A stretch of 64,000 nt of DNA from Cyanidioschyzon merolae (GCA_000091205.1 AP006490.2), one strand, 5' to 3'. Counted from the first letter of the stretch, positions 2,455 to 38,825 are shown. Numbers and translations are program-made. Notes: generated by a model from the sequence alone, not told the origin.

Positions 2455-3062
2455 GTTTCACACCCAGGTGCGAGCAATGAAATGCGATTTCGCGGTTCAT
2501 AGCAGGTACGTTCCAAGTGCGTTCTTTTTCAAGAATAAAAAATCCAAGGGAGAGGTATGCGCATGGAATCGGGGATCTTAGAGGCCTGTCAGCATCGGGT
2601 GACTGAAAAAAGACGAGGAAAAAATCCTCGTCTTGCCGCGCATTGCGCAAGGAAGAGCAAATACGGAAGAAGAAGAGTGGTGATAGTCGAGAAACGGAAT
2701 TCGCCCGACGCTACGTTGCCGAGACTCTAGTGGAAGACAAAGCACGAGTGCTAGCCATTTTCGCAATGGTGCGTTCCACCTGCGTCAATGCATGCAAGGA
2801 GTTCATCAATCGACACTTCAGTGGCACCATCAACATAAGACGATGTGTCGTGCTGAAGACGGGACACGAGAAGCTGATGTGATACAACTTCGTTGGACAG
2901 CCTCTCAGTCTCGAAGCATGCCTGGATAAACTGAAGCCGATAGCAGGCCGCTGGTCAAAATAGGCTGGGAGGCGTCACTGGATGGTTATCGGTTTACCGT
3001 CCATGGTCGTGGGTCAGTTTTTTTGTTTCATCGACATGTACATATAATCTGCATGCAGTATC
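2455..3062 (+). repeat. Dispersed element family 1, copy A (about 600 bp)
   Basis: Copy A aligns over its whole length at about 70% identity with 15168..15745 (+) and with the reverse complement of 38225..38825. Shared blocks include 'aataaaaaatccaaggga', 'ggaattcgcccgacg / ggcattcgcctgacg', 'cagcctctcag...ctgcctggataaac', 'ccatggtcgtggg...tttttgtttcat.gacatgtacatat'. Confidence 0.8.
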
Positions 3063-3518
3063 TGCTGCACCAGACAGATCATCAAGCGAACAGTGGCAGA
3101 TAAATCACTGCTGGACACTCGTGCGAGATTTTGGGGAATATCGGCAACATGCACGTTGCCATGGAAAGGACCTCCCATCATCGGAACTGAAAGACATAGA
3201 AACGCGCCTCAGAAGAACCCTAGACTACCATTTCCGTCTCGGTTTGTAGCCAGACGAACGGTACTTGGTATCATCTCTTCACCGTTACGGAATGGCAATC
3301 CCTATCGCCCAAGCGCTATCCACAAATATGTGTCTCGATCAGCGCCACCGCATCCGCGTGGTTCTTTAGTTCGCTTCTGGTGCCGACTTCTGTCAGTGCG
3401 GCGCCCGAAGAGACTTGATGCATTGTCCACGACCTAAAGGCGTCCGAATCATCGTAGCGACTGACCCAGAATACGACGTCATCGATCTGAGCGTGCAACA
3501 TGTGGTGCAAAATTCGCA

Positions 3519-4502
3519 GTGGAGTTTTCGCATCTGATCCATGCACGTTGTTCCAGCGCACCGTTTGAGACCCCGAACTACACTTACTGTGTGACGTACC
3601 TGATCCACAACACGGAACGAACGCCTATGACCGGCTCTAGGGGTCCCAAAATGCACAAATCTCCAGAACCAGAGGCAGTGCGTTCCATTCTGTGTGAAGA
3701 GGAAGCCGTCTCTCCTGCACGGGATGGAGGCACGAGAGTGCGAGCACCCGCACGCTCATCAGCCGCAGAATCCCATATTGAGCACTGGTCTAGGAAGAGC
3801 GCCGCTTCTATGTGGTCCAGATATGCGCTGAGAAGCACGACACTGAAAATGTACGCGCAGATCCTCGATCAAGGTTGGAACGAGGTTCACCGCGACACTG
3901 CGCATCTACTTGGTGTCGAACGGACATCGCGTGCGAACATCCCTCGGACAGCGTCTCTATCAAAGTCAGCGATCCATTGTGTCTATACAGTTAAGAGCCC
4001 TGTCGTAGCAAGTTCAAGTGGTGCCGCATATCCATTCTTCGCAGAGCACGGAGTTGATCTGTTTAGCAGCAAGGCAGCTGGCGAGACGCAGAGCCTCCCA
4101 GGCACCTGTTCTCTGATTCACGGATACTATACCGAATCTATTTTGAGCGCCGGATGCAGACAAGGTACATATCGTTGGAACGCGAACCATCGACCGGAAA
4201 CGCGACGCGCAAAGTGGCACCAAGCCTGCCCTCGTCTGAAGCGAGGCTCACAAATGCCTTGGAACTGCGGCATCGAAACCATCTACCCACACCTGTCCCG
4301 TATCAAGATCGAAAACACCCTTGAAACCCTTGTCTGTCAAGGGTGCATGCCGGATCCGACCAACTGCCATGTGAGTAGGTCAGTGCATCGCGTCTGTGGT
4401 GAAGAGAGCGTACGGAGGCGTGTAGCGGGCTGGGCGCTCCCCCAGGAGCCATGGCGATATCGGGAGCATCGCGCTTTCAGCATCTCGACGGAAGGGTTGT
4501 AG
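3519..4502 (+). CDS. Hypothetical protein, 327 aa, no recognisable domain
   Basis: A long ORF sits in otherwise gene-free space between family-1 copy A and the Raptor gene. Third-position codon composition is similar to neighbouring genes, but there is no homology signal, and in GC-rich DNA it could be spurious. Confidence 0.2.
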   Translation: MEFSHLIHARCSSAPFETPNYTYCVTYLIHNTERTPMTGSRGPKMHKSPEPEAVRSILCEEEAVSPARDGGTRVRAPARSSAAESHIEHWSRKSAASMWSRYALRSTTLKMYAQILDQGWNEVHRDTAHLLGVERTSRANIPRTASLSKSAIHCVYTVKSPVVASSSGAAYPFFAEHGVDLFSSKAAGETQSLPGTCSLIHGYYTESILSAGCRQGTYRWNANHRPETRRAKWHQACPRLKRGSQMPWNCGIETIYPHLSRIKIENTLETLVCQGCMPDPTNCHVSRSVHRVCGEESVRRRVAGWALPQEPWRYREHRAFSISTEGL

Positions 4503-5311
4503 AGAGCTGCCACCGTCCGCTCTAAAGCGTAGATCTTTCTCAACTTCTTCTGGAGCAACGCTCTACAATTTTCTGTGCTGTCTGGAACGAAGATCCATAC
4601 TGCAATCGTCTAGCACGTGCGCTCCGCTCGGGTTGCCGGCAGGTGCATGCACGAGTCTCCATTAGCTGTGCCCCTGTGCTTTGTCATAACGCTATATATG
4701 TACTTTCCCAGTCTGTACAGCGTCGGAGCTACCGCGAATTCGAGTGTAACCGCCAGAGACGCGCAGTTTCGCTCAGTGGCAACGAATAGCTCCTGCCGCG
4801 CAATCTTACCTCTTTTCCCGAGGAATCAGTAGGTACTGCTTCCCGAACTGCTCCTCTGGTTCACATCCCTGTTTTGAGGCGTCAAGGCCCTGCGATTCGC
4901 AAGGCAGTAGCGCCCCCGTCCGTTGCAGAGCTCCACTGGACTGGGTGTACCCAGCGCTTCGGCCTGAAGGCAGATAACTCGACACGTCGGCCTCGTACAG
5001 CGGCCCTGTAGCGCTTATGCACTGCTTAAACCCAGTGGACTGGAGTTATCCAACTCTGACTCCAGAAAGAAGAACAACACTTTACCAGTTGGCGGTAAAA
5101 CAAAAGCCACTCCTGGAACGCTTTTCGGGCAACGATCGCCTGTGCAGCGCGTCAACGCGAACTCGTTGCCGTTTCCCCAGACTGGAGCGCCTTTCCTGCG
5201 TCGTGCGTTGCTAGCTACGAGTCAAGTCGGCACAAAGCCGGACTTTAGCAGAGGTAGTGGTCCAGTCTAGCACGTACGTCGCTATGGCCGTCTTTTTCCA
5301 GGGCAGCAACA

Positions 5312-8300
5312 GTGGCTTCAGTAGCGGTACCGTCTTTTGAGTGTGTAGAGGTCCTCAGCATGCCTTCGTTGGTGTCACGCGTCTCGAGGCTTCCAGTCGA
5401 AAACGACGACGAGCACTTGACGGACGCTAGCAACGATGATGCGCTTACAAATGAAACAAAAAGCGAGTACTCCGAAGCTCTCTCGACAGCTATGAGTGCA
5501 TCTTTGAGTCTCGATACAACCAAGGAGCTTCCCGTGGTGTACGCAGAGCCGTACCGCGCTATGCTCGTGGATCAGTTGCTTCTCGAGTCGACGCGGACCC
5601 GGTCGACTTCCGTCAGCTTCACGAGAGGGATAGGCGCTGAGCTGGACGATTCTATGGGCAACCAAAACGGATCCGTTTGCGAACTTGCAGCGCAGCCGGA
5701 AACCAACCTCACACCGAGCGGCACACCGAACTTGGCCGGCAGTTGGCAACGCCCTAGCCGCTTTGAGACACCGCACGGCTCGTTGGACACCATTGTTCAC
5801 TATTTGGAGAATGTCCGCCAAGATATTCGCGCAGAAAACATATCAGAAAAGTACGTTCCCGGGACGCCAGCGGCAACACTCGAGGTACTGGACCCCACCC
5901 AGATTCTCAAGTCCTGGCGAGTTCGAGATCGATTCAAGACAGCAGCAGTCGCGTTGGTGCTCTGCCTCAATGTAGGCGTGGATCCACCTGATGTCATCAA
6001 ACCGACACCATGTGCTCGGGTCGAGTGCTGGATCGACCCCTTCAGTATGTCACCGCAGAAAGCATTGGACTCGATCGGCAAAGCGCTGCAGCTACAATAC
6101 GAACGATGGCAACCACGTGCTCGGTATCGGGTGCTCACAGATCCGGTCGCGGATGAGGTCAAGAAACTCTGCCTAGGTCTACGTCGAACTGCGCGTGAGG
6201 AGCGGGTGCTGTTCCACTTCAACGGCCACGGGGTACCGAGACCAACCGCCAACGGCGAGATCTGGGTCTTCAATAGAAACTATACGCAGTACATCCCGCT
6301 GAGCCTCTATGACTTGCAGAGTTGGCTGGGAGCTCCAGCGGTCTATGTTTTTGATTGTCCTGCTGCTGGACTGGCGATACGTGCCTACCTCCAGTTTGCC
6401 GAGCAGCGCGAGCATGAACAGCCGTACCAGCAGCACCAGACGGGAGCGTCGCATCCCCATATGGGTGCAGAGGACGTTCCAGTGCAGAGTGCCGCGTTGG
6501 CTAGTAGTAGTAGCGGCGGCGGCGCCAACGCTCGAACAAGTCGTGCTAGTTTGGCAGGCGAGTCACTCGCAGCGGGTGAACGTGCGGCAGCTGCTTCCAG
6601 CGCATCGAGCTATGCCTCCTTCGTGCGTGACTCGTTCCTGCTGGGCGCTTGCCAGGCCGATGAATCGTTACCGACTACCCCGGACTTGCCGGCGGATTTG
6701 TTCACAGCCTGCTTGACGACGCCCATCAAGATTGCACTGCGGTGGCAGGCACTGCGCTCTGCAGGGAGAAGCATCACGATGGACATGATTGATCGCATAC
6801 CTGGACGTTTGAATGATCGAAAAACCATGCTCGGTGAGTTGAACTGGATCTTCACGGCGGTTACCGACACGATAGCGTGGAACACATTCCCACGAGCAAC
6901 GTTCAAGCGACTCTATCGCCAGGATCTGCTGGTTGCGAGCCTTTTCCGCAATTTCCTTCTGGCTGATCGCTTAATGCGGCAGTTTAACTGTACACCGGTG
7001 AGCTATCCCCCGTTACAGGCAACACATCAGCACCCGCTTTGGCAGGCCTGGGATCATGCTGTCGAAGAGTGCTTCGCACGGTTGCCGTCCTTGTTGCAGC
7101 AGGACGCATCGGAAGGTCGCGTTTCGGGAACGGGAGCAACAACTTGCCTGGCAATGCGCACCGTGGCTGCCGCTGGTGCTGGACGAATGGCAACTGCTGG
7201 TCCGTTGCTGAACAACGCGAACCCGCTCCACCAGGGTTACGGCGGCATGGGAGGCGTCGCCGTCCCTGCTGCTGCTGCTGCTGCTGCGAATACGACAGTA
7301 GCGCAGGCGCCTATCCACTTGCTTCCTAATGCACCGACGGATCCTGGCGCTCCACTGACCGCGGCGAATCATCTGATGCGTCCAGAGCCGCGTGGGAATC
7401 TGGAAGTGCTCCACGACCTCTACGACTATCGTGAGGCCGGCACCACCTCGTGCCGAACGCACGACACAGTGCAAGCGCAGACACACCATGTCGGAGGAAT
7501 GCATCGAGTGCAGGGGCCTGGTGTCACCAATCCAGCGGCACAGCCGACGCTGGACCTCTCGGCAGCGACTGGAGCCGGATCGAACGAGACGGGTTTGACG
7601 GCCCCGCTGTACGCTCACTCGCCCAGCGAAGGAGACGTATCGCTGCCGAGTCCGTTCTTTGAGAACCAGATGGCTGCGTTCGAGGTGTGGTTGGACTTGC
7701 CCGCACATCGACGAAGTCCTCCAGAGCAGCTACCAATCGTCCTGCAGGTGCTCTTGTCACAGGCGCATCGTCTACGTGCGCTTCAGCTTCTCTCTCGCTT
7801 CCTGGATACCGGCCCCTGGGCCGTTGACCTGGCGCTCTCGGTAGGCATCTTTCCGTACGTCTTGCGGCTACTCCAGAGTCCAGCTGCAGAGCTTCGCGCG
7901 GAGCTCGTGTTCATCTGGGCGAAGATCTTGGCCGTTGATCCGGCGTGCACAGAGGAACTATTCAAAGAGAGTGGCGAGCGTTACTTTCTCACCAGCTACG
8001 CTGCTGAGGACGCGAGCGCTGTGCACCTGGCTTGTGCGGCCTTCGTGCTCTGCCATGTGTTGAACAAAGCCGTGGACGCATTCGGGGATGCGAATCTCCT
8101 CGCACTCTTCCTTCAGCGCCTGGAGCATGCCTCTGAACCGGTCCGCCGCTGGACGCTCTTCTGCCTAACAGCCTGGATGGAGTCAAGTCGAAAAGTGCCT
8201 TCCACGGGGACCGTCTCGACAGTACTGGAGCTGTTGCGCACGGACCTGTCGCCCAAGGTGCGCGCTGCCGCAGCACAGACGCTAGCAACGATGTTGCGCT

Positions 8301-14538: not shown

Positions 14539-15167
14539 GTGCTGTGGCTGTCCTGCGCGTGTACTGGCTCTGGGTGCGTTTCTTCCGTGTTTCCGGGACA
14601 GGACGCCGTGGAAGATACATCCATGAACATTCGTTTGAGGCAATGCGCGAAGCAGACCGGTTCTTTCGCCTGCTATACAAGCTGCCTCGAACACAGATGC
14701 ATGGTATTGCTGGCAACGCAAATGCATTGCGAGAACGTTTGTATTCCGTGCTCGAGGATGGGCGAGATGTCCACGTTCACAGCAGTCCGGGTTGTTTCTG
14801 GTGCAGCTTTCCATGCGCACGCTTGTGCGGGACTCGAAACGTACCCTGTATTTTCTACATTATCCAAATAATTGTCAGCCTGCTCTGGTCTAGCTGGCAC
14901 GGAGACGTGTTCTGCTCTGCACTCGAGGCTGTTGCGATCATCTCCAATGAAATATTCGAGATCCTACGTGCTTGCTTCAAATGGCGCGCGGATAATGCAC
15001 TACGGAAAAAAAAGTCACGGTTTTATACCATGCGCATCGTGGTGTAAAAGCAAGTGCTTGGTGCACGTTTTTGCGCACACGCGTTTGCCGCTGGATAGTC
15101 ATAGGACAAGTGTGGGCGAGCCCCAGCGCATGCGATATTCCTCTCGTTATGATCCTGCACGTCGACG

Positions 15168-15745
15168 GTGCTTCACCTCTAGGTGCACGTCATCAAATGC
15201 GTTTTCGCGGTATATAGGAGATGCATTCGAAGTGCGTTCATTTGAACAAATAAAAAATCCAAGGGAAAGGTAAACGCATAAAAGTTAGGGAACCTGGAGG
15301 GCCGGTGTCGTTGGGTCCCACAAAAAACACGAATAAAATCCCCGTCTCGTGGACGATGGAGAGACGAAGAGCGGAGATAGGCGGGGAGAGGGCATTCGCC
15401 TGACGGGACGATGACGAGACTGTGGTGGCCTAGAGGGCACGAGCTCCAGCAATTCTTGTATTGATGAGTTCCGCCAGATGCAATAAAAGTACGGCGTTCG
15501 TGAACGGAGAATTCAACGCCTCCATCGATACAAGATGATGTGCTGTGCCGAAGACGAGACCCGGGGAGCTAACACGAGCTACCTTTATGGGGCAGCCTCT
15601 CAGGCTCGTACTCTGCCTGGATAAACGGAAACCAGGAGCAGTCGGCCGGTTAAAAAAGGCCGGGAGGCGTCTGTGCATGGGTATGTACTTACGATCCGTG
15701 GTCGTGGGACATTTTTTGTTTCATTGACATGTACATATTCTAAGA
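15168..15745 (+). repeat. Dispersed element family 1, copy B
   Basis: See copy A. It has the same orientation and lies in the 5-kb gene-poor interval between the thioesterase and FKBP genes. Confidence 0.8.
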
Positions 15746-18700
15746 ACTGTGAGTTCCGGAACACCTGTACTATCACACTCTTATGTTTTTGTTTGATTTT
15801 CTGCAGGTATGCAAAGAAAGGGTTTGTATCCCGTAAATTGGAGAAATGTTGCGTCAAATCCTGGTGCTGGCACTGCTTGCTTGGGAAGAGCAGCTCAAGT
15901 CGTAAATGCAAGTCCTTCTCCGGTGAGGAGGTGGATGAACCATCGTTCTTATTGCGTTTGCCCGAAACGTCTTGCACCCAAAACATAACTTCATCACGGC
16001 TTTTTTCACGATCTTCGTATCGTCAATCCACTCCACTCCATATGCTCTATTAGAGAGGCGATCAAGCAAGCCGTAGGATGCGAGAATTCCGCCTCATTGA
16101 CACCAACGGTCGTGAAGCGACATGGATGGACGAGGTACAAAGCGCGAGTATGCGCTAAAAAACGCCGAGCGCTCGACAACACACTCTCGATTTCGAAGTG
16201 AAACACAAACTCGGACTATAGAAGAGACTTTCGCTCATAGAGGAAGAAATGGTAGACCTGTATATAGGTTCTCAAAGAGTGAGGGTAAATCGGTGTTCGT
16301 AAAGAAGGGACAAGCGAGTATTCCGACAAAATCTGCGCTGAAGGCGATGCTACCTTGTGGTCGCCTAGGTCACCAGAACGGACGGGTTCGTCAGTATTTC
16401 ATCCTCCGTCAAAGCAAATTTCATGGATTCTCCATCTGACATTTTTCTGTCCCGGTCGTAGACGATGACGCTTTCCGTCACACAAAAAAGCAGTGACGGA
16501 GTACGCAGTTGAGATTGTCGTTGAGCTCGTGCTCGTGCCGGCCTAGGCTGCCTGGTTCAACCCAGTCGATGGCGTCTTATCTGATGTAAAACTCTGTATT
16601 TACGTTTACGGGCCCATAGACGGGTCGTTCGCATCAGCGACACCGTTCTCTGACAAACTGTTCCTCGACAAGTCGTTCTCTACTTTCATCGGCACTCCAC
16701 TAATGTGATGCTCCTCTGTTCTTGCGCTTGAGCGAGTGAACAGGTGTGCTACAGTTCGTGAGGATTCTCGCGGTGGAAAGGTGACGAAAAAGTGCTTAAA
16801 TGATGATCGATGCGCTCATGGAAAAGGCGAATTCGAGCCCCACAGTCCACCCGGTACGAGTGCAACACGTAAAAAAGTAGGTATATCGAGTATAGCGAGC
16901 ATATTCGCGCCGTCCAGTCTGATAAAGAACAAGGAGAAGGAACGCCAGACTAAGAGGAAGAAAATTTCCCCAGAAAGTCGACGAGGGACCATAACGTAAA
17001 ACCGTCGAAGAGGGACAATCTGCCTGAAACGATGATCAGGTGCTTCGCTTTGAACCACGCCGTCGGGAAGAATTTTCCGAAACGCAAGTTTCAGGAAATC
17101 GTTAGGTGTTGCATAGCTTCTTCCAAGAACCGGGTTTCGCTCACGTTGCCCTCGAGTTTCAAGCACTTGGTTACGCAAATGTTTGTACGGGTCCCAGACG
17201 CACTGCTGCTAGATATCCACATTCCTCTGGAATTTTTCGATCAAACCCGAGTACGACCATATACCTGATACTCAGGACAGAAGATGAAATGCGGCCAGAT
17301 CGTAGTATCCACGCTTTGCATACTCGCGTTCCAGAATGCCTTGATGCTTCGCCACTCCTAGGCACTGATCGGAGCATCCACAGCACAGGTACGAACCTGA
17401 GTCTAGCAATCTCAAGAACTGTGTGCGTGCCAATGCCGAGCGTTTCATGGGGCACCTCCTGTGGGCGTTGTGCGCTCACCGCACTGGTCCAGAAAAACGG
17501 GTACTTACGGTAGGGATTCTCGGGATACGCGTGCGAGAAAAAAACGAATCCTTGGCGGCGGAAGCGATCCAGGCGGTCAGGCGCTCGGACTCGATGTCGC
17601 ATTGATCGCGAGATTCGCTTCAGATCGCCCGAGCTCATTGCGTAGCTCTGGGCCTCAGACCGGAGCACATCGTATCCAAATGATGCTGGAAACGTGACCC
17701 ATGCAGCGCTTTCATCTTGCGCATCTATGTGTTCCAGAATAGAGCCCTCTAGCGCAAAGCGAATCGTCTTTACGAATACGTCCGCGATAGCCTCCCCGAC
17801 GATCTATCCAAAGGTGTCCCGACTGGTCTGATCGATGTCCATCATTTCCTAGAAGAAGCTTCTGTTCTGTAGAGGATTTCTGAATCAGTGAGCTACGGCT
17901 GGTCTCTGCGAGCGACTCTGAAGCAAGCGAACAACTTGGCGAAGAGCATTGGCAGAGCGCGTCCAAGAGCTCTCGTTTACGGGGAGGAAATGAGACGCAA
18001 TTTACAGTGACGATCGATATAGACGGCGTATCAAGCAGCATGAACTGGTGGAAACGTTTATCTGCGTCGATCAACGAGGCTCATTTCCAGTCTTTCTAGA
18101 CAGATGACGAGAATGATTCTATGGTGTGTATGGATGCAGTGCTGGAGGTTTCCAGGTCCATCGCAACCCCTCCAAGTCAAGAGGATAGAGTCAAAGATTC
18201 CAACGGGTAGCAGATGAAGCTGCTCAATTTTTCAAAATGCTCTGTATGCTAGGGAGTCGGACGTGATGGACACCAGCAGACACACCAGCAAATAGAATAA
18301 CGGCTGCAGGGCCCATGTCGAAGCTCCAACCACCATACCGAGTAGAGGCGCATCCTTGATACGCCTCGTTCAGAGCGTACATGAGCGTCCAAATGATGCA
18401 TGCGGACGACCATTCGCAGGTGTATGTGACACCGCGCTGGATCGCCGACAGTGTTGTTTTTTTTTTGCTGAAGCCAGCATCGTCCTTTGGTCAATTTTTT
18501 TCCAACGAATTCGAGTACGGAATACCCGATATGTCGCATGGTTTCATGGCGGCCAATGGCACTAAACGTGCCGTACACCACAAATACCTCATTCCTGCAC
18601 CTTCGACGAGCGTGTCCAACGAGCGCATCAATCGGATCTGTTGGATACCTATCGATGCATTCGGAATGGCGTACGCGTATCATGAGCACGGGCACACGCT

Positions 18701-19648
18701 GGACCCGGTACAGAGGGAGAAGCAAGTGGAATAGACGCATATGTACGAGGTGGTGTCCGGGAAGCGGACCGCCCTTCACCTGGCGAGGAAATCCATGGAA
18801 TGTGAGACTCGCTCTGGTTTGATGCCAGCAGCGGCTATCCGCGGAATCAGTCTCTGCACCGAGACTTGAACGCCTCGATCAACGTTCGGAAGTGTCTTGG
18901 GCTCCTCGACTTCGAGCGGTTTTGTCGAGCGAACATTCGACGGAATCCTTTCGTACTCAACAGGGGCTTGTGCTCCTATGCAGAAGCGTTGCGATTCGAG
19001 AAATCAGTGGCCGAGACAGAGGGCATCGGGTTCTCCTAAGCGCCACGGCACTGGCATGGTACGGCGCAGCAATCAACAAGTCCGAAACGCCGTCTCAGTT
19101 CACGGGGAACGCTTTTCGTGGGCTAAAATATCCGGGTTACGCCTTGCACTCCTAGATGCGGATCGTTACCATGACAGAAATTGCATCCAGAGGCGCGTAT
19201 GCCTCTGATATGACCGCCACGTCCTCGTCATGATACACGCTCGCGCAGACACTCGAGTCGACACTGCTTCACGCGGCCCTAGGATTGGCTTCCTTCTGCT
19301 TGACGTGATCAAGTGCGCGGGAGCAATTACATCCTGACGCCTTTTAACGATGAAAGAGTCGCACCATGCAGTGCGCAGTTGCTCCATGTTGTTCCTGGCA
19401 AGGGTACTCTCGAGTTCCCAGTGTCCATACAACGTCCAGTACAACTGCTGCAGCGAGCTCTGTGTGCTCGAAGCACTGTCGTGGGCACTTGCGACGTCTA
19501 CCTCGTTGGGCACGGCTCCACCGTACCCACACCGCACTACGAAACGCGTTTCATTTTTCCTCGGACACTGTCTTGACCAGTCGCTAGATCCACCTCTAAT
19601 CTTTACACTTGAAACCAGTCTTTAGTCCTGGCATGGAGCGACCCCACT

Positions 19649-23244: not shown

Positions 23245-24347
23245 GTGTGCGCTCCGCCGGTCGGAGCGCGCGCGCACGCGTACACCATCCAGGAGGCTGC
23301 GATTGGTGCAGGTGCTGGTGCAACGCATTCTGTAGGCGCGGATGCACATGTCCTTTATGTATAGGAAGGATCAGTTTGGGTGCATGGGTGCGCGCACGCG
23401 TACACCATCCAGGAGGCTGCGATTGGTGCAGGTGCTGGTGCAACGCATTCTGCAGGCGCGGATGCACATGTCCTTTATGTATAGGAAGGATCAGTTTGGG
23501 TGCATGGGTGCGCGCACGCGTACACCATCCAGGAGGCTGCGATTGGTGCAGGTGCTGGTGCAACGCTTTCTGTAGGCGCGGATGCACATGTCCTTTATGT
23601 ATAGGAAGGATCCGTTTGGGTGCATGGGTGCGCGCACGCGTACACCATCCAGGAGGCTGCGATTGGTGCAGGTGCTGGTGCAACGCATTCTGTAGGCGCG
23701 GATGCACATGTCCTTTATGTATAGGAAGGATCAGTTTGGGTGCATGGGTGCGCGCACGCGTACACCATCCAGGAGGCTGCGATTGGTGCAGGTGCTGGTG
23801 CAACGCATTCTGCAGGCGCGGATGCACATGTCCTTTATGTATAGGAAGGATCAGTTTGGGTGCATGGGTGCGCTCACGCGTACACCATCCAGGAGGCTGC
23901 GATTGGTGCAGGTGCTGGTGCAACGCATTCTGCAGGCGCGGATGCACATGTCCTTTATGTATAGGAAGGATCAGTTTGGGTGCATGGGTGCGCGCACGCG
24001 TACACCATCCAGGAGGCTGCGATTGGTGCAGGTGCTGGTGCAACGCATTCTGCAGGCGCGGATGCACATGTCCTTTATGTATAGGAAGGATCCGTTTGGG
24101 TGCATGGGTGCGCGCACGCGTACACCATCCAGGAGGCTGCGATTGGTGCAGGTGCTGGTGCAACGCATTCTGTAGGCGCGGATGCACATGTCCTTTATGT
24201 ATAGGAAGGATCAGTTTGGGTGCATGGGTGCGCGCACGCGTACACCATCCAGGAGGCTGCGATTGGTGCAGGTGCTGGTGCAACGCATTCTGCAGGCGCG
24301 GATGCACATGTCCTTTATGTATAGGAAGGATCAGTTTGGGTGCATGC
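23245..24347. repeat. Tandem array with a 120-bp unit, about 9.2 copies, more than 95% identical between copies
   Basis: The unit 'cgcgcacgcgtacaccatccaggaggctgcgattggtgcaggtgctggtgcaacgcattctg[c/t]aggcgcggatgcacatgtcctttatgtataggaaggatc[a/c]gtttgggtgcatgggtg' starts at 23271, 23391, 23511, ... 24231. It creates long in-frame artefact ORFs on both strands. Confidence 0.95.
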
Positions 24348-25512
24348 GTTTCCCAGCTTGCGGCGAACGCCGGAGTCGCGCTGCTCCTGCACCTACATAC
24401 TCCAAGCAACATGCGTCTATATCACACGACGTGTACCGCCGCGGACGCGCAAATGAGAGGCAGCACTACCAGCCTGTGGGCATTGCCGTCACCGCTATAC
24501 AGCATAGATTCGATTCATGGAAACAGGTTCACGCGGATACGTGAAACGCAGCGGCGATTTGTCGTGATTCTGCGCTCGACTGTATGCATCCCAGGAGTTT
24601 TACTTGCGCAAGCCTAGCATCCTCTTTCGGAATAGAGGTCTGGTTAATCCAAAGACCCAGCAGCTGCGAACCTCTATTGCGCACGCCTTGCTTTACCATG
24701 ACGTGTATCGACTCGATGAGCTCAACAGTGCCGCTCCCGACACAGCTGGGTAGCACAGACAGCGGCAAATGACATAACGCTGGGCGAGCACGGATCCTAC
24801 GGAGGTTTCCGTATCAACACGGCATTGCAGCATTCGTGTTTATAAATCCTGGGAACATCCTGCCTGCTTCTGCAGTTTCCACATTACCGAATTCCCCCAT
24901 AACATGATTCTTCTACAAATCCTGGGGACTAGCGAGGGAGAGCGTCCACCTCTATCACCGTAATCGATCGCCAAGGAGCCTCGAGGCGCGCACAGTGACG
25001 CGCCAACATTGCCTAGGGCAGCGCTTGGTACGGGCGGCAGACACGGGGCGACTGCACCACTTTGCAGAGAAAACCAGAACATTCTCGCTTACACGCCGAC
25101 AGAGAAGGCTGCCGCACCACGGCACTTGTCTGGAATATCTCGTTCAGTGCACATCGCTTCGAATGCATCGCATGTGCAAAGGAAAGCCTCCAGACAAAAC
25201 ACTCTTGAATACAAGCCTCTCTGTTCGAAGCTGCCCGCTCGGCGTATGCTGACGCTCCGGTCTATCACGATGCACCAGAGATGCTTGATCGCTACGAACC
25301 TTTCCGACGCTTGCCATGCATACAATTCCGACTGGTAGCGTTTGCAGCTAGTCTATGGGATCGAAGAGTCCCAGCAGTAATCTAGCTGATCTGTAACGCT
25401 CGTAAACGCTCATGGGGCGATACGGAACTGGTTCAATAGGTCGCACCGGCTACGCAGTGCGTCTTGGTGGCGCAGCCAGTTTCCGCACAAGGTCCAGAAA
25501 AGCTCTGAGCGT

Positions 25513-28276: not shown

Positions 28277-28306
28277 GACAACAAGCCAGCCAGCCAGCCA
28301 GCCAGC
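28277..28306. repeat. (CCAG)n microsatellite
   Basis: The sequence 'agccagccagccagccagccagccagc' lies in the convergent 3' intergenic region between the PsuG-K fusion and RPB2. Confidence 0.9.
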
Positions 28307-28427
28307 CAGCTTGCCTGCCAAGTTTTCCCCGCTCAGAGCGGCCCAATGGATGCTGTGGAGCTCGCGGTGCTGGACCAGCATGCCAAGGCGCGTGCTCAGA
28401 CGCCCGGGATCACCCCGTACGCTCGTG

Positions 28428-31982: not shown

Positions 31983-32959
31983 GAACGCCAGCGTTCAAAC
32001 CAAAGGTCTCAGTACTGAGCGCCGCTCCGTAGAGGTCAGTCCGAATTCCCAGGGTTGCTTCTCCTCAACGATTTACTCGCTCAGATCCGCCTACGGGCTA
32101 CGAACAAAGGAAAACCAGGAAGGCTCGCAGCGCTAACAAGCTTGCCGCCACAACAACGATAACAACAGGTACACGAAAAGCGTGCCTTCCTGAGCGAATC
32201 CACAGAGGGCGCCCCCTGGGTTCCGCGCTAGCACAAGGCGGCGCTGTACGCGGTAATCCGTGGAACGCCTCCGGATGCAGGTATCCGTTGCGGAAGCTAG
32301 GATTCCGGGTTCTTGCAAACGTTTCCTTGATCATGACAGGTTGATGCAACACGGGTTGACATTTCCAAAAAGCTAGTCATCGCTGCGCATACTCGGATCA
32401 GGGTTCAGTGTGAGTGATCCGTCGACGAAAAACGATATGTTACCCGGCGTACTTTCGCTGAAACACGCAGCGGCTAAAGCGTGCGCTGGACTCGTGGCCC
32501 CGGCAACATCCAGGTGTTAGCGCGTGGACTGTGCGCAACGTTGTTACAGCATATGGTTTTTCTCGTTCGCGGCTCCTTGGGATACCATCCGGAGGTGTGT
32601 GGCTCCGCGAAAGTCGTGAGTTCATGGCGCCGGTTGGCGGACTCGATTCAAAAACAACGTGATGCGTCTTTGTCAGAATACAGTGGAAAGGGTCCACTTT
32701 GCTCCATCATGCGTGCGCATTAAAGTTTGGGTCTCTTCCCATGGTCTTTTAGACCGGCGCTTTGGGGGTTCTCCTGCAACTGCTTCCTTTTCGTGGATCT
32801 CGCATCCGGCATGAAAAACGCCGGTCTCTCTTGTCACTCCAGCTCTGTTGTCAGCCGTCCGAAGATTTTGATGACAGCGTTCAAGTCCCGACGCTGCCGC
32901 TTGTGACTGTTGGCAACGCAGTTCATGCGCAGGTGATGGCTGCGATCTACGACTCGCTA

Positions 32960-33310
32960 ACCATTTTCATCCATTTTGTACGGAGCCTGGGTGTGCCCTC
33001 TGCAACGGTAACGCTTGACTTGGGCCGTACGTTTCCACACGCTCACCATGTCAGCTTATTCGATGGCTGCCCTGAGGCGCGTGAACGCTCGTTTCAATCC
33101 ACGGCACATACCCTTGACGGGTACAGAAAGCCTCCACAGATGCCCTGCTCGGTTTCCGCGCTCGGGGCCGTACGCGACGATAACCGGCTTCATCTGGAAG
33201 ATGCCCTCGATACGGACGCTGTCCTCTGCACACCTAGGCGCAAACTGCTCCATTCGACAGAGGTTTTGTGAAACGCGATGTTGACCATAATGATTCAGGT
33301 ACCGTACGGA
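32960..33310 (+). repeat. Dispersed element family 2, copy 1 (at least 350 bp)
   Basis: It aligns with 60900..61290 in the same orientation. Shared blocks are 'ttcgatggc..tcctg', 'gacgggtacagaa[a/g]g', 'cagagg[t/a]t.tgtg[a/g]aacgcg[a/g]tgttg' and 'ag[g/t]acc...actggagag/cg'. Confidence 0.55.
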
Positions 33311-34310
33311 GCACCCACACTGGAGAGGAAATAGAAAGATTTCGATCCGTTTAAGCTTGCGACTTGCAGTGCTGTAACGCACGATCCACTGGAAAGGATC
33401 GCTGCTGCGACTGGAGTCCGAGTATGGGACACTTTTCGGTGCACATAGTGGAGATGAGCAGCGCTCGGAGCATATCCGCTGAAGGGTATCATGCTGGTAT
33501 CGAATGCTGTACCGTTGTCTTCATAAATGGAGGATGATTTGCCTTTCGAAGGCAATCGCTTATTTGACTTAAAAATGTCCGTGAACTTTCGGCATGAGCC
33601 TGTGAAGAGACCTCCAAGAGGTGACCTCGATCGTAATCCACGGTAGTCCCCGGGTGAGGATTTCTGCGCCCCCGCGTACCCAGAAACACCAGGATCGAGA
33701 GCTTGATAACGCGTGATTCGGGTTTGCCGCTCGCAAGAAAAGGAGACGAATAGAGCCTGTTCGTATGTATTGGATAATGGTTTCGGTTATTTTAGGAACC
33801 TTGGTTCTAGGGATAGCGAATCATCCTCGATCCGTTGACGTTACGAATGCGAGCAACAAAGCGTCGAAGGAGCCACTCCCAAAACGAAGACCTAGAACCC
33901 CACCCGCCAACAACCAGGAATGAGTCCCAAGGCCCTTAATGCTGTACTTGCAAGTTCGAGGTTGTCCAATTGGAAAGTTTCGGACAATCTCCACCGCGGA
34001 TGAAATCGAGCACCTCAGGTTTCCGCGTTCATCTGGTACGAGTCTCGTCCAGAGACAGATCGCCACGAGACACCGTGATCGCGGTGGAGCGCGCACGCGC
34101 CCGACTGCTTCGCCTTGGCTGAAAAAGCGTTCTGCCCAATACCGGGTGCATCGCGATACTCGCTGTTGTTGAGGTTTCGTTCATAGCTCGCTCTGTGAAA
34201 CCAGCACGCTTCGGAGTATTTCCTCCGCGTAAACTGGAAAGGTTACACGTCGGTGTGCGGCTCTCTTGATAACAAGTGGTCCAGAAGGCGACCGTCTCAA
34301 GCCTGCAGGT

Positions 34311-34958
34311 ATGGACACAGCAATATCGCTCGCGGGAAAGGACTTTGTTCTAAGCGCAGCCGACGTGACAGCTGCACGCTCGATCGTGGTCATGAAGGAG
34401 GACCAGGACAAGATCCAAGAGCTGGATCGTTTTCGGCTTCTGAGCGCTGGCGGTGACCTCGGTGATGTGGCACAGTTCACCGAGTACATCCAGCGTAACG
34501 TGCACCTCTATGAGCTCCGAGCGGGAACGTCGCTGAGTACCCGCCAGATCGCCCATTTTATTCGTGGAGAGTTGGCGCGTGCCCTGCGCGAGCGTCCCTA
34601 CGAAATCAACCTGATCCTTGGAGGCTACGACCAGGGCGAAGGTACGTCACTATATTATATTGACTATTTAGGGAGCTTACACATGATGAAATACACAGCT
34701 CAAGGCTATGCAGCATATTTTGTGTTGAGCACGCTCGACAGACTCTATCGCCCGAACATGAACCTGGAGGAAGCGCTTGAGGTCTTACGTGCGTGCTTGG
34801 ATGAAATGGGTCGACGTTTTCTCTTAAAACAGCGCCACTTCATGGTCAAAATAGCGGATGAGCGTGGTGTACGCGTACTAGAAAATGCCTTCGTCGATGC
34901 ATCTGGAACGCCAACGTCGTCGGTGACAGGGGCGGCAGCGGCAGCCGCTACTTCTTGA
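34311..34958 (+). CDS. PSMB2: Proteasome subunit beta type-2 (beta4/PSMB2 family)
   Basis: From Met 34311, 'MDTAISLAGKDFVLSAADVTAARSIVVMKEDQDKI...DVAQFTEYIQRNVHLYELR...NLILGGYDQGEGTSLYYIDYLGSL' is colinear with PSMB2. The raw ORF starts 15 codons upstream. Confidence 0.9.
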   Translation: MDTAISLAGKDFVLSAADVTAARSIVVMKEDQDKIQELDRFRLLSAGGDLGDVAQFTEYIQRNVHLYELRAGTSLSTRQIAHFIRGELARALRERPYEINLILGGYDQGEGTSLYYIDYLGSLHMMKYTAQGYAAYFVLSTLDRLYRPNMNLEEALEVLRACLDEMGRRFLLKQRHFMVKIADERGVRVLENAFVDASGTPTSSVTGAAAAAATS

Positions 34959-35286
34959 ACGCTCGTGCAATATTTCTCCACATCCAGTCAGGGTGTACAG
35001 ACCAGCTGCATTGTGCTCGACGGGTGTACAAACAGACACGTGTACCTCGATAAATATTGCACAAATACCATTTTGAGCGATGAAAATATGCACTCACGAC
35101 AGCTGATTTGCTGGTGACGCATCATCTACCGGTGCCGAGTTCCATCGTGAACGCTGCCTGCACCTTTGCGCATATTCACAGATATTCTTTGATTTGGAAC
35201 CGTTTTCATGGACCTGGTACCAGTGCATAGTTGGAAGCTGACGACGCTCGCAGCGCCTCTTATACTTGGACAATGTGCAAACTTCC

Positions 35287-36993
35287 TCAATCCCAGAGCT
35301 TGATACTGCCGTCCGCGGAACAGGAAGCAAGCATCATCGAATGCGGATGGAATGCAACGCAGTAGACACGATCACTATGCGCATCGATCGTTTTCACTGC
35401 CTCTTGGGCGCTTGATTGCGAATCGTACAAAAAGATGCGACCGTTCGTACTCCCTGTTGCCGCAACGAGGCCAGAGGCTACGCTGCTGGCGTTCAAAACC
35501 CCGTCAAGCTGTTGACTCCGCTGCTGGGATGCAGGCGGTTGCCCGCTACCATCTATTGGAACATCACTGGCAGCGGCCAGTAACGTCCGCGACTCGTGAA
35601 CCACTGCGGTAGCGGCGCCGCTGACATCAGCGTCCGCTGCGTAGAGCGCAGGCATGCCGCTGGATGCTTTGGTGCTCGCAGGTGCCGCCAATGCTGCAGC
35701 GTCAACGATAGATGCACCCCGATCTGACGCGAAGCCGCGCTCATAGAGGCTGCACCGCAACGGCAATCGCCCAAGACGATGACCTCGATGCGTCTGGTAG
35801 AGCACGAGTTGCACGTCGTTGGTGTTGGTGTTCTCCTGGTGCGTACGCAGCGCTTTCACTTCGTACATTCGCAGGCAATCGTCGAAGGCATTCACTGCCA
35901 CGTATCTACCGGATGGTGATCGTTGGATATGCGCGACAGGGCTTGCCGCTTCATCGTTCAACTGACACGAGAGGGCCGTCTCCGGCCTTCGTAAATCAAA
36001 GGTATGCAAAAGCCCTTGCGAGTCCCCGATCATCAGAATATCATGCTCCAAGAACACCATCGAATTCACCATCCCTATGCCAGATGCAGAGGTCAGGACG
36101 CGGCTCATGGTTTGCTCGGGCCGGGCAGATACACCCGCAGCAGGCGAGCTCGGGCGCGAGCCGGTCACTTGGCTCATTTGTTGCACTCTTCGATCTAGTC
36201 GATAAACGAAACCGTTCGAAGTACCCGCATAGATACAATGGGCATCGTCAGGGTCGATGGCCAAACAGAGTACCAGGCCGCGAGGAAGGCTCCAGCTCTG
36301 GACGGCCTGTCGTCTGGCATCGCTCCCGTTCCCTTCGGTAGCGAATGCGGACCAGTCCCAGACACGAATACAATGATCAAAACCAGCTGAATACAGGTAG
36401 CGATTATCCTGCGTCCAGCAGAGGTCAACGACGTTCGCTGCATGCGCGTCTGCAACGGCCACAGCACAGCGCGGCGACTGGTCCACGCTCCAGACGCGTA
36501 CGGAGCGATCAAAGGAACCAGAGGCAAGGTACGACCCACAAGACGACCAGGATAGCGCATATACGGCTCCTTTGTGTCCGATAAGCTGGGAACGACAGCT
36601 CAGTGAACTTGAGCTTTGCCGTTCTCCACTCCGTCTCACTACGACCGGCAGCGATGCCGCTGGCGAAGCCGCTCTAGAGCCTGGTATAGACTCCGCTGCT
36701 CCGAGACCGGCCTCTGTTCGCTCGCTCAGCACTTGGAAGTCCGCGACAAACCGTGACGCTTCCGGCACATGAACGCCCTTCGAAGGATTGGGGCTAATAT
36801 CGTTGAGGGCAGAAGTTAGATCGAAAACCCCAGTCTCGCTAGCAGATCGTCGAAGGCTGAGTTCGAACACCGAGCGTCGCAGGTCTCGGTTCTCCTTCTC
36901 CAGTGCCTCTAGACGCTCCTGGAGAAGCTTTCGCTCTCTTGCGGCAATTTCCAACTGCTTTTTATAGAAAGCTTCTCCCTCGTGCTCCGTCAT
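35287..36993 (-). CDS. Coiled-coil plus 7-bladed WD40 repeat protein (ATG16- or striatin-like architecture; family uncertain)
   Basis: An N-terminal coiled coil ('KKQLEIAARERKLLQERLEALEKENRDLRR') is followed by WD40 repeats: 'LIGHKGAVYALSWSSCGSYLASGSFDRSVRVWSV', 'HSDRVYCVAFHPHSMMLASCSADGSIKLWD'. Confidence 0.8.
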   Translation of the reverse strand: MTEHEGEAFYKKQLEIAARERKLLQERLEALEKENRDLRRSVFELSLRRSASETGVFDLTSALNDISPNPSKGVHVPEASRFVADFQVLSERTEAGLGAAESIPGSRAASPAASLPVVVRRSGERQSSSSLSCRSQLIGHKGAVYALSWSSCGSYLASGSFDRSVRVWSVDQSPRCAVAVADAHAANVVDLCWTQDNRYLYSAGFDHCIRVWDWSAFATEGNGSDARRQAVQSWSLPRGLVLCLAIDPDDAHCIYAGTSNGFVYRLDRRVQQMSQVTGSRPSSPAAGVSARPEQTMSRVLTSASGIGMVNSMVFLEHDILMIGDSQGLLHTFDLRRPETALSCQLNDEAASPVAHIQRSPSGRYVAVNAFDDCLRMYEVKALRTHQENTNTNDVQLVLYQTHRGHRLGRLPLRCSLYERGFASDRGASIVDAAALAAPASTKASSGMPALYAADADVSGAATAVVHESRTLLAAASDVPIDGSGQPPASQQRSQQLDGVLNASSVASGLVAATGSTNGRIFLYDSQSSAQEAVKTIDAHSDRVYCVAFHPHSMMLASCSADGSIKLWD

Positions 36994-38224
36994 TCGTTCG
37001 AATGTGTCCTGTTGGAGCAGAGCGCCTCAGAATCAATGCCAGAAGCATGGAATCTTGCGGTTTGTGTTCGAACGCTTCGCATCTCCGCGAACGATGCGGT
37101 GCCCGAACTGGTGCGAGGGATTCTCGGATTCTGTGCTCCGTAGCCGCACTAGCGTCAGTCGATGCCTATCTACCCAAAAGTACATCTTCCAATGGGGAAT
37201 ACTGTAAGTCTGAACACGGGTGTACGGATAGAGAGAGGGACAGGCCGCGATGCATGCCCGCGACTTGCAGATGGATCGGAAGCGGCAGTGAAACTTTGCC
37301 GCTTCGAAGGACACGGTTGCGATACACTCCCACGCGCTGCTCTTTCGTGGACATCGAACTTGGACGCCTGTAGCATTGGACCCAAACTGGAAACCCTGCT
37401 TCATCGCGAACGTATCATGGACGCTATCTGGATATGTATCGTTGTGAGCGCTTCCGGATTCGGGGACCCTGCAGTGTTTCATGGATTGCGCTCTGCTTTG
37501 GTTGATGGATCAGAGACGCTGGCCCCCGTGGTGGTACTCCCGTGTGTTTCCGTGATTTTTCGATGATATTGGATCGTTAAAGCTAATCAGAGATACTCAG
37601 GTCGGCGCTTGTTCTCGGCATTCAGGGAAGCGGTCTTCATTTTGCCCGAAACCTTGCAAGTTCCATGACCCAGCTGCGAGACTTCCCACTCGAGTATCGT
37701 GATTCGTAGAGTGTGCGCTGTAATGCCAATAGCGCTGCGGCATCGCCCTGGCTGCAGTGTTGCCTCCTTTTGCGTGTCAGGCTGTGCGCTAGCGCAGCAC
37801 GGCTGAGCGCGTGTACCGTCTGCCACCTCGAGACCGAAGCAGAGCGGCTGCCAACTCGCCGTGGCAGACGACCGTATTTCAGCCACTGTGGTTGATACCG
37901 CTGCACTCGATTCTTTTCGCATCTGCAGGGATAGAGAGCAGCATTGTGATGTCTCATGCTTGCGAAAACACGTAAAGCTTCACATTTATCAGCATCGGCA
38001 TTTCGAGTCCAAATGCTGCTGTCGCCGCAAAGGCAGCTACATGGCTGCTTGCATGAACCCATGAGCGATGTGCTATGCTTGAAATACCGGATGAGATGCG
38101 CTCCTCTTTCACGGTTGGAGCATGAAATGGTGCACCTGATGCATAAGACGCTGCGACGATGTGGATGGGGAAAGACAGGACGCGCGATGCTCCCACCACG
38201 GCCATGATTCGCAGCGGAACGGCC

Positions 38225-38825
38225 TCTCGATCCTAAAGATATCGAACATCGTGCATGAAACAGAAAATGTACCACGATCATGTAGGGTAAATTAATATCC
38301 ATCTGCAGTCGCTTGCCGGCCTTTTTTGACAAGCGCCCTGCAATCGGCTTCGGTTCCTCCTTGTGCATTTCGACCCGGAGAGTCTGTGCCGCACATTTAG
38401 GTAGCGTGAGCTCCTCGGGTTTCGTCTTCAGCACAGCACGTATCCCGGTTCAGATGTCGGCGTTAAATTCTCAGTTCACAAGCTCCATGCGTCTGTTGCC
38501 TCTGGTTGAACTCGTCTATGCAAGGATTCCTCTCAATGGTGCCCTCTGCGGCACCACAGTCTCGTTATCGTGCCGTCGGGCACGCCCCTCTTCTCGCACA
38601 GCGCTCCGCTTCGTCTTCTTCTTCGTGTTCGTCACCGGTTCTTCTTCGCTCGATGACAGGCGAGAAGATTTTTTTATGTTTTTCACGTCGAACTCGGCGA
38701 CGACGGCCCTCGAGGATGCTCGACTTCCATGCTCATAACCCCTGGATATTTTATTTCTTCAAATGAGCGCACCATATTATCCCGATAGATGAGGAAATTC
38801 CTGGAGGGAGAAGCATTTGCGGCGG
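38225..38825 (-). repeat. Dispersed element family 1, copy C (reverse orientation)
   Basis: The reverse complement aligns block by block with copies A and B, for example 'catggaagtcgag', 'gaaaaacataaaaaaatcttctcg', 'gaagaagaagacgaagcgg...gcccgacggcacg' and 'gtagcgtgagctcctcgggtttcgtcttcagcacagcac'. Confidence 0.75.

Follow-up and report, generated by a model that had tools for sequence, protein, structure and literature searches.

The window, a 64,000-nucleotide stretch of Cyanidioschyzon merolae 10D DNA, contains four copies of a dispersed element (A to D; Table 1), three of which (A, B, and C) had been noted in a preliminary description made from the sequence alone. Three proteins encoded in the window are identical to C. 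merolae 10D entries (BAM79794.1 and others) on the 739,753-bp chromosome. The repeat in those three places is real: A, B, and C can be aligned over ~580-620 columns, with a core identity of 70% for A-B, 64% for B-C, and 61% for A-C, against ~40% in the flanks when these are force-aligned (blastn between copies gives E 1e-66 for A-B and 8e-43 for B-C). The initial figure of ~70%, uniform over pairs, was thus only roughly right, the measured spread being 61-70%. About 300 bp of the copies align free of indels at 60-70% identity. The length first given, ~600 bp, suits A and B; copy C as a whole, with its upstream segment, is instead ~1.45 kb (~39685 to 38237, minus strand). Copy D, missed in the preliminary description, is complete on the metagenome contig L005 (4937-6314, equivalent to window positions 65301 to 63924) and is likewise of the ~1.45-kb type. 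We therefore distinguish two structural types: type 2 (C and D), with an upstream DDE_3 transposase gene, and type 1 (A and B), which lacks it. A hairpin quoted earlier from copy A (gacgaggaaaaaatcctcgtc) has no counterpart in B or C in the alignment.

Table 1. Element copies and related remnants in the window. CMe-1A, published transposon consensus; CMe-1, its protein.
Feature	Coordinates	Strand	Evidence and details
Copy A, type-1 mini element	2431..3048	+	nhmmer 2439-3048; blastn to CMe-1A 786-965 and 2903-3081; tblastn to CMe-1 aa 638-725, E 1.5e-12
Copy A inner landmarks	Fanzor1 ATG region ~2556; deletion junction ~2719-2735	+	shared 5' terminus
Copy A RuvC-III remnant and 3' end	~2808; ~3034	+	INRHFSGTINI; ...TTTTTTTGTTTCATCGA
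Copy B, type-1 mini element	15145..15741	+	nhmmer 15154-15741; blastn to CMe-1A 832-969 and 2840-3083; tblastn to CMe-1 aa 646-730, E 8.5e-13
Copy B landmarks	start region ~15270; junction ~15414-15430; RuvC-III remnant ~15503; 3' end ~15727	+	
Distant Fanzor1 pseudogene, frameshifted	17405..18959	+	tblastn to CMe-1 aa 172-685, ~30% identity, E 1.5e-22
Copy C, mini-Fanzor part	38237..38780	-	portion seen in the preliminary description; nhmmer 38851-38236; blastn to CMe-1A 2854-2971; tblastn to CMe-1 aa 640-728, E 2.4e-11
Copy C landmarks	Fanzor ATG ~38736; junction ~38565; RuvC-III remnant ~38476; 3' end ~38254-38237	-	
Copy C leader, type-2 upstream ~900 bp	38781..39685	-	decayed IS630/Tc1-mariner-type DDE_3 transposase gene; ATG ~39671
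Second longer Fanzor1 pseudogene, frameshifted	57195..58535	+	tblastn to CMe-1 aa 372-697, ~29%, E 1e-23
Copy D, last 77 bp of type-2 element	63924..64000	-	blastn and nhmmer; rest beyond right window edge

Relationship to the Fanzor1 transposon CMe-1A

CMe-1A (a Repbase name) is a Fanzor1 (TnpB-like) transposon of C. merolae described by Bao & Jurka (2013, Mobile DNA 4:12; PMC3627910). Its consensus measures 3169 bp, its ~150 copies are each ~80% identical to that consensus, and terminal inverted repeats (TIRs) are absent; its Fanzor1 family was given as "classification unknown" in 2013. Using the consensus and the 734-aa CMe-1 protein from the supplements of that paper, we find by blastn that CMe-1A 786-969 and 2840-3083 match the halves of A, B, and C at 70-73% identity (E 1e-13 to 2e-25), with no blastn match in the copies for the middle ~1.76 kb. 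By tblastn, CMe-1 aa ~628-730 match all four copies at 42-53% identity, copy D (L005 5968-6267) matching aa 628-728 at 53% with E 4e-24. Retained in the copies are CMe-1A ~785-1068, comprising the 5' end and the first ~55 codons, and ~2833-3169, comprising the 3' end and the last ~92 codons, among them those of the NRDxNAAxNI RuvC-III motif; ~147 of the 734 CMe-1 codons are kept. The junction lies in frame at a "TGG" microhomology between CMe-1A 1068 and 2833, with ~1.76 kb (aa ~56-642) deleted. Alignment to a virtual deletion of CMe-1A puts the junctions of A, B, and C at exactly one point, so a single deleted progenitor was copied to many sites. The CMe-1 N-terminus, MEKEVEDPGGP...YDEMVV, is recognisable in the copy consensus, and the 5' terminus is common to type 1, type 2, and CMe-1A ~785-865. 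None of the copies has the full-length ~3.2-kb CMe-1A structure with its 5' 635 bp; they start at ~785 and lack 1069-2832. We conclude, with a probability of roughly 90%, that the copies derive by internal deletion from a Fanzor1-carrying C. merolae DNA transposon and are dead and non-autonomous.

The copies belong to the same organism as CMe-1A, are homologous to it at both DNA ends and at the Fanzor1 N- and C-termini, and are of similar age (copies ~75-80% identical to their own consensus); neither they nor CMe-1A have detectable TIRs or definable target-site duplications (TSDs). Unlike CMe-1A, the window copies lack the ~1.76-kb Fanzor1 ORF interior as well as the initial ~785 bp, of which the 5' 635 bp resemble the element TE-N2_CMe; moreover, the last ~60 bp diverge, CMe-1A having an extra GC-rich hairpin, and the DDE_3 transposase gene of type-2 copies has no equivalent in the CMe-1A consensus. 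Because the copies are only 70-73% identical to that published consensus, and no closer to it than to one another, they are, on this measure, a sister subfamily and not its direct descendants. TE-N2_CMe itself, a 635-bp non-autonomous C. merolae element (PMC3627910), is of similar size and age in the same genome, but its sequence is a different one, that of CMe-1A 1-635, a segment missing from the window copies. No copy of TE-N2_CMe was found in the window by blastn; at three loci elsewhere (L024, L025, and L027) it often lies within a few kb of mini-Fanzor copies.

The parent protein does show Fanzor motifs. CMe-1 aligns with the Chlamydomonas Fanzor1 CRe-1 over the DEFRTS/DEYKTS, NRDxxAA, and GxDPG motifs (E 5e-6), and the published Fanzor/TnpB motif is D-X(125,275)-[TS][TS]-X-X-[C4 zinc finger]-X(5,50)-RD (Bao & Jurka, PMC3627910). 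Of this motif the mini-ORF retains only the final ...NRDFNAAINI; the deleted segment includes the GADPG aspartate, DEFRTS, and the zinc-finger region. Without the zinc finger and the catalytic residues of RuvC-I and RuvC-II, the mini-ORF cannot encode a nuclease. Pfam recognises neither CMe-1 nor the mini-ORF consensus as TnpB-like; a PF07282 match appears on copy D only and is sub-threshold (E 0.0025, 18.4 bits, cut-off 26.3), and a PDB sequence search with CMe-1 gave no match. The parent is therefore assigned to Fanzor on the strength of the motif analysis of Bao & Jurka together with one pairwise comparison. Readings of the ORF as a TnpB C-terminus alone, and then as a Fanzor N-terminus alone, were discarded, since the whole published protein shows both, fused.

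Dispersal, decay, and alternative readings

Searches through short ORFs gave 17 further distinct copies (E down to 2e-34), none of them from the window, and at least 10 of these ORFs read across the same deletion junction. Five of the 17 were recovered as DNA, near-full, in four loci (L024 to L027) whose neighbouring genes differ entirely from those of the window, where they match CMe-1A by blastn as the window copies do. The orientation of copies to neighbouring genes varies between loci. When metagenome contigs were scanned for the exact 3' motif, no loci beyond the four of the window came up, which shows that the shared 3' motif is not strictly conserved family-wide and that the scan motif was over-fitted to four copies. 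The window also holds two long Fanzor1 pseudogenes. One shares the gene-free spacer of copy B; the other is its paralogue, with collinear blastn matches to 17592-18959 at 68-74% DNA similarity, and the two, 68% identical over 1.3 kb, have just 2-3 indel events between them. Pfam, run in six frames on the 4 kb adjoining copy B, found no transposable-element domains (no reverse transcriptase, integrase, or gag); it missed the adjacent pseudogene because this is too diverged, and only tblastn with CMe-1 found it.

Copies are 74-81% identical to the family consensus (64% for D). The preliminary description had stated that no long ORF is common to the copies, which holds for the present-day sequences; the majority consensus of nine copies nonetheless regains a 106-codon open frame, ...MEFVNRDFNAAINIRRCAVLKTRPEELTRSNFVGQPL.... 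Each of the four window copies carries 2-3 in-frame stops, length changes put the N-terminal and C-terminal parts out of frame with each other, and differences from the consensus are even over codon positions (0.176/0.187/0.192). Codon periodicity between copies is absent (54/51/49). Taking this absence to mean that the element was never coding proved wrong: independent pseudogene copies drift neutrally, and the consensus test shows the open frame. Strain polymorphism per kb is 14.8 in the transposon segments, 2.8 times the 5.3 of coding DNA, and 11.6 in other intergenic DNA. No trace of the element was found in the orthologous spacers of Cyanidiococcus and a second relative, which measure 865-1321 bp as compared to 2819-5111 bp in C. 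merolae; remnants make up roughly half to three quarters of the extra C. merolae spacer DNA at three syntenic sites. Insertion thus appears to be lineage-specific with respect to these two relatives. Given the even codon-position differences, the in-frame stops, the lack of a conserved fold, polymorphism no lower than in other intergenic DNA, and absence in the relatives, the copies drifted neutrally after insertion.

The preliminary description had left a choice between an old transposon burst and a constrained module, and the first half of it stands: the copies are dispersed and decaying neutrally at the identities just given. A non-coding RNA gene or cis-regulatory module under selection at several loci might have been argued from the ~300-bp indel-free run and from the four window copies all being directed towards the next downstream gene. 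Yet the long Fanzor pseudogenes are also indel-poor, and copies at other loci are convergent with, or far from, their neighbouring genes. The RNAalifold consensus reaches just -26, -19, and -14 kcal/mol over 240-300 nt, and its covariation term, a check that the preliminary description had proposed, comes out as a net penalty whichever strand is folded and whether 4 or 11 sequences are used. Rfam gives 0 matches, Rfam and tRNA scans of the whole window found nothing, and both the high strain polymorphism and the empty orthologous spacers speak against constraint, so that selection on an RNA or regulatory function is very unlikely. It is very improbable, too, that the copies are small functional genes whose ~145-aa product would join the N- and C-terminal ends of Fanzor1. 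The deletion is in frame, the consensus regains its frame, the 106-codon C-terminal part is free of in-frame stops in four outside copies, and the synonymous fraction is 0.33 against a uniform expectation of 0.25; but those four copies were found through ORF calls, an ascertainment bias, and the synonymous excess fits transition bias (ts 268 : tv 304). The stops and broken frames of the window copies and the even spread of substitutions over codon positions also count against such genes, whose product would have just one catalytic motif left.

Two further readings concern how the copies arose. A segmental duplication confined to this ~70-kb chromosome segment, the fallback offered at first, would account for four to five copies within that distance and for the outcome of the exact-motif scan; the 17 outside copies, five of them seen as DNA in four unrelated loci, and the ~150 published copies of the parent family (PMC3627910) make it extremely unlikely. 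Solo LTRs, or other retrotransposon debris left by recombination, had been suggested by the LTR-like length, the gene-free surroundings, the absence of poly-A, and the TG with which A and B begin. The supposed LTR start, "tg..ttcac", is instead homologous to position ~797, inside the CMe-1A consensus, and the supposed end, "catgtaca", lies just beyond the common 3' end of the family and occurs in A and B only. Since the copy halves correspond by homology to the two ends of a DNA transposon's Fanzor1 ORF, two copies carry a DDE_3 transposase remnant, and no retroelement domain was found beside copy B, the LTR reading is scarcely credible.

The transposase leader and a proposed history

The derivation from a Fanzor1 DNA transposon is extended by the leader of type-2 copies, a ~900-bp upstream segment present in C, D, and L024 and twice in L025, and absent from A and B. 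A profile of it matches the window at 39683-38736 (E 2e-289), and in copy D it occupies L005 4957-5913. Translation of the leader consensus matches Pfam PF13358 DDE_3 at 52-58 bits (cut-off 28.6; E 8e-14 to 2e-15), with a further, weak match to PF01710 HTH_Tnp_IS630, and near-full relatives of the leader include a 297-aa protein annotated as a transposase with PF13358. A DDE_3-type transposase of the IS630/Tc1/mariner (ITm) kind is accordingly present, in copies C and D only and as a decayed gene. As for TIRs, comparison of the 5' end with the reverse-complemented 3' end scored no higher than the shuffle mean in four copies, where decay could hide short ones. Copy ends are too eroded for boundaries to be set to the base, and the intergenic DNA of the relatives does not align with the window spacers, so no empty site is available for TSD comparison. 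Because no TIRs are detectable and no TSDs definable, the link to a mariner-type mechanism is one of architecture alone. Nor did the analysis recover any element in which an intact transposase and an intact full-length Fanzor1 occur together.

A close architectural parallel is PUl-1, a mariner/Tc1 element of Pythium ultimum with a captured Fanzor1. There, likewise, Fanzor1 is preceded on its own strand by a DDE transposase of the IS630/Tc1-mariner type, with similar motifs (...DE..F, ...LDN/T.A.HH..., ...PYSP..N.IE...). PUl-1 has 24-bp TIRs, TA duplications, and intact genes (PMC3627910), whereas the C. merolae copies have no detectable TIR or TSD, both genes are decayed, and the Fanzor is internally deleted. 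In their internal deletion, retention of both termini, amplification from one progenitor, and loss of coding capacity, the copies resemble MITE-like deletion derivatives and the bacterial IS200/IS605 PATE elements, in which nothing but the transposon ends and the guide-RNA region is left. The copies, at ~600 bp and ~1.45 kb, exceed typical MITEs in size and lack TIRs; as to the PATE likeness, an omega-RNA scaffold may have been retained in C. merolae.

An order of transposase then Fanzor1 has been published for Fanzor1 in other species (PMC3627910), and the ancestral element here may have read 5' end, DDE_3 transposase, Fanzor1, 3' end. One deleted progenitor spread to many sites before neutral drift set in, and type 1 (A and B) has lost the DDE_3 gene in addition to the Fanzor1 interior. 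The mini elements may have been mobilised in trans by the DDE_3 transposase acting on the kept termini. The last ~300 bp are present in all derivatives, perhaps kept for cis sequences needed in mobility. In other Fanzor/TnpB systems this end region holds the guide-RNA (omega RNA) scaffold, and by analogy it may do so here as well. No conserved fold or covariation was found in the copies, although neutrally decaying copies are not expected to preserve an omega-RNA fold. Taken whole, the proposal that the family was formerly of IS630/Tc1-mariner type with the order transposase-Fanzor1, and that the minis were "guide-only" passengers keeping the omega-RNA scaffold and right end while Fanzor1 and transposase acted in trans, is tentative and, in our estimate, rather doubtful. 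If it were true, the minis would be a eukaryotic counterpart of bacterial PATE/omega-RNA-only elements, and a discrete RNA would be expected that ends at ...TTTTTTGTTTCAT and runs into flanking DNA.

Implications for the C. merolae genome

A tempting "conserved intergenic element" is, in all likelihood, ordinary debris left by a transposon family that has been in the literature since 2013; it is not worth pursuing as a non-coding RNA or enhancer, and in that sense the result is chiefly a negative one. For specialists, it offers an amplified in-frame deletion derivative with a single common junction. The DDE_3 gene directly upstream of the Fanzor gene in some copies suggests a class for a family that had been unclassified, and this mariner link would be a modest addition to what has been published. 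Because remnants fill half to three quarters of the extra spacer at three sites, the unusually long spacers of the otherwise minimal C. merolae genome are partly old Fanzor-transposon DNA.

Identity of the repeat

We conclude that the repeat derives by internal deletion from a known Fanzor1 transposon family, is non-autonomous, and is decaying neutrally. As in the preliminary description, copies A, B, and C (see table) can be aligned over ∼600 columns, with flanks at ∼40% in a forced alignment; core identity is 70% for A–B, 64% for B–C, and 61% for A–C, and copy-versus-copy blastn reaches E = 1e-66. Every copy has stops in all six frames, and between-copy substitutions lack 3-base periodicity (54/51/49). 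Long open frames reappear in a majority consensus of the copies, as expected for independently decayed relics of coding sequence. Frame +2 of this consensus (...MEFVNRDFSAAINIRRCAVL...) resembles the RuvC-III end of TnpB/Fanzor nucleases, and the best Pfam match of copy D is a sub-threshold hit to PF07282 (Cas12f1-like TNB, E 0.0025).

The 3169-bp C. merolae transposon CMe-1A codes for CMe-1, a Fanzor1 protein of 734 aa, and is present in ∼150 copies, each at ∼80% identity to the consensus; its description reports no TIRs and assigns it neither a TSD nor a class (Bao & Jurka 2013, PMC3627910). With the consensus and protein taken from the supplementary files of PMC3627910, blastn equates the 5′ part of the copies with CMe-1A 786–969 and the 3′ part with 2840–3083, finding no intervening CMe-1A sequence in the copies, and tblastn matches CMe-1 aa ∼628–730 in A, B, C, and D (E 2e-11 to 4e-24). 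CMe-1 is recognized neither in Pfam nor in a PDB sequence search; as one independent check of this parent, it aligns with the Chlamydomonas Fanzor1 CRe-1 across the GxDPG, DEFRTS/DEYKTS, and NRDxxAA motifs (E 5e-6).

The copies are collinear over their whole length with a “virtual deletion” of CMe-1A, and A, B, and C have one junction in common, 1068|2833 in CMe-1A consensus coordinates, at a TGG microhomology. This removes ∼1.76 kb (aa ∼56–642) in frame, giving a mini-ORF that joins MEKEVEDPGGP...YDEMVV to ...RAKVRGLLAL...MEFVNRDFNAAINI... and that, having lost the GADPG aspartate, DEFRTS, and the zinc-finger region, cannot be a nuclease. A distinct derivative on a compared contig (L025 4005–5320, −) joins a DDE_3 transposase leader straight to Fanzor1 aa ∼613–728; deletions thus arose more than once, sparing the 3′ ∼300 bp each time.

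Features of the window
Feature	Position	Strand	Remarks
Copy A	2431-3048	+	type 1
Copy B	15145-15741	+	type 1
Copy C	38237-38780	-	type 2
Copy C, whole type-2 element	~39685->38237	-	~900-bp leader + mini-Fanzor part
Copy D	64000->63924	-	fourth copy, right window edge; complete on same-species metagenome contig L005
Distant-Fanzor1 pseudogene	17405-18959		frameshifted, long gene-free spacer; ~30% aa identity to CMe-1, E 1.5e-22
Distant-Fanzor1 pseudogene	57195-58535		frameshifted, long gene-free spacer; ~30% aa identity to CMe-1, E 1e-23
Tandem duplication	86-463		150-bp period, near-perfect (86-313 vs 236-463, 99.6% identity)
Tandem array	23270-24349		about nine 120-bp repeats within overlapping long ORFs, adjoining IspD gene; copy number varies among metagenome strains; most polymorphic stretch of window (29 polymorphic sites per kb)
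Segment pair	46645-46743, 61308-61408		100 bp, 72% identity, E 4e-6; unrelated to CMe-1A
Diverged tandem repeat	51658-51948		period about 90-100 bp, 82-84% identity; spacer upstream of 1256-aa B-box protein gene

A transposase leader in type 2 copies

Alignment of nine copies reveals two 5′ variants. Type 2 (C, D, L24, L25b, and a fifth copy at L025 5320–4371) extends a further ∼900 bp in the upstream direction, to a total length of ∼1.45 kb. The consensus of this leader is a decayed DDE_3 transposase (PF13358, 52–58 bits; cut-off 28.6) with a weak IS630 HTH match and the transposase motifs VDETCF, LLLDTVAFHHS, and PSYSPWFNRIEGVF; near-full protein relatives exist, one of them an annotated transposase. 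Because types 1 and 2 and CMe-1A (from ∼785) share a ∼95-bp 5′ terminus, type 1 is type 2 minus the transposase gene. No TIRs are detectable in the copies, and their eroded ends define no TSDs. The order of leader and mini-Fanzor part is like that of PUl-1, one of the mariner-type Fanzor1 elements, in which a transposase lies upstream of Fanzor1 (Bao & Jurka 2013, PMC3627910); the accessible part of the published account holds no statement of such a link for the C. merolae family.

Dispersal and decay

Neither solo LTRs nor a local segmental duplication, both raised in the preliminary description, accounts for the repeat: the copies match the two ends of a Fanzor1 transposon in blastn and tblastn, and the family is genome-wide. 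When metagenome contigs were scanned for an exact 3′ motif, the four window loci were the sole matches; the motif was over-fitted to those four copies. With the reconstructed mini-ORF as query, the matches were 17 different short ORFs (best E 2e-34), none from the window, and at least 10 of them read through the same junction. Four of these loci (L024–L027), each with unrelated neighboring genes, hold five further near-full mini copies, two partial copies, three copies of the 635-bp non-autonomous element TE-N2_CMe, one authentic CMe-1A 3′ end (84% identity), and additional distant Fanzor fragments. The TE-N2_CMe copies (CMe-1A 1–635, 75–81% identity) lie near mini-Fanzor copies, at L025 12260–13371, L024 5852–6482, and L027 6515–7125; that on L025 adjoins, in inverted orientation, a mini copy truncated at its 3′ end, an arrangement suggestive of nested insertion.

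The suggestion of a constrained RNA or regulatory module also failed. In the nine-copy consensus, a frame of 106 codons is open again between the junction and the 3′ end. The copies are 74–81% identical to this consensus (D, 64%), which fits the published ∼80% and accounts for an identity of ∼65% between pairs of copies. The three codon positions differ from the consensus to a similar extent (0.176/0.187/0.192), with a synonymous fraction of 0.33 versus 0.25 expected without transition bias, and each window copy has 2–3 in-frame stops. Strain polymorphism is higher in TE-derived segments (14.8 sites per kb) than in other intergenic DNA (11.6) or coding DNA (5.3). Rfam and tRNA searches gave no matches. 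RNAalifold folds of the best-conserved 300 nt are weak on either strand (−26 and −19 kcal/mol), with covariation a net penalty; for 11 sequences, the last 240 nt give a consensus fold of −14 kcal/mol, again without covariation support. Nor is the indel-free 300 bp of the copies special, since the window's two long Fanzor pseudogenes, at 68% identity, differ by just 2–3 indel events across 1.3 kb.

Lineage-specific spacer DNA

The window holds intron-poor eukaryotic DNA, with one ORF each for Raptor, RPB2, eIF3c, IspD, and others. Three of its proteins are identical to C. merolae 10D entries from a 739,753-bp chromosome, and same-species metagenome contigs match it at ∼99.3–99.5% identity. A fifth, short mini-Fanzor 3′ fragment lies ∼3.4 kb beyond the left end of the window (L022 7801–7923; 3′ profile E 9e-20; tblastn to CMe-1 aa 699–720). 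Gene calls on metagenome contigs include a 243–265-aa ORF (37637–38434, −) that begins within the 3′ end of copy C; with no Pfam match and apparently missing from the C. merolae 10D protein numbering, it is probably spurious. Downstream of copy D, a 153-aa ORF (62537–62998, −) without a Pfam match has its last ∼45 codons 80% DNA-identical in a relative (L013 8692–8828), and in view of this C-terminal conservation it is probably a genuine gene that looks unannotated.

Gene order is kept in Cyanidiococcus yangmingshanensis (L009) and a second relative (L010–L014). Their spacers matching the C, B, and D sites measure 865–1321 bp (3084 bp for D) versus 2819–5606 bp in the window, and profile and protein searches did not find the element in them; the extra DNA in which the copies lie is therefore lineage-specific. 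Mini elements and the two long pseudogenes (68–74% DNA identity to each other) make up about 54–74% of that extra DNA when three syntenic sites are compared. No Fanzor, DDE_3-leader, or mini-element remnant was detected in ∼68 kb of syntenic DNA of the two relatives (L009, L010, and L013) versus 6 in the 64-kb window, and expansion of the family appears specific to the Cyanidioschyzon lineage. The mini elements would have been mobilized in trans by the DDE_3 transposase, and the universally kept 3′ ∼300 bp may have had a cis or omega-RNA role.
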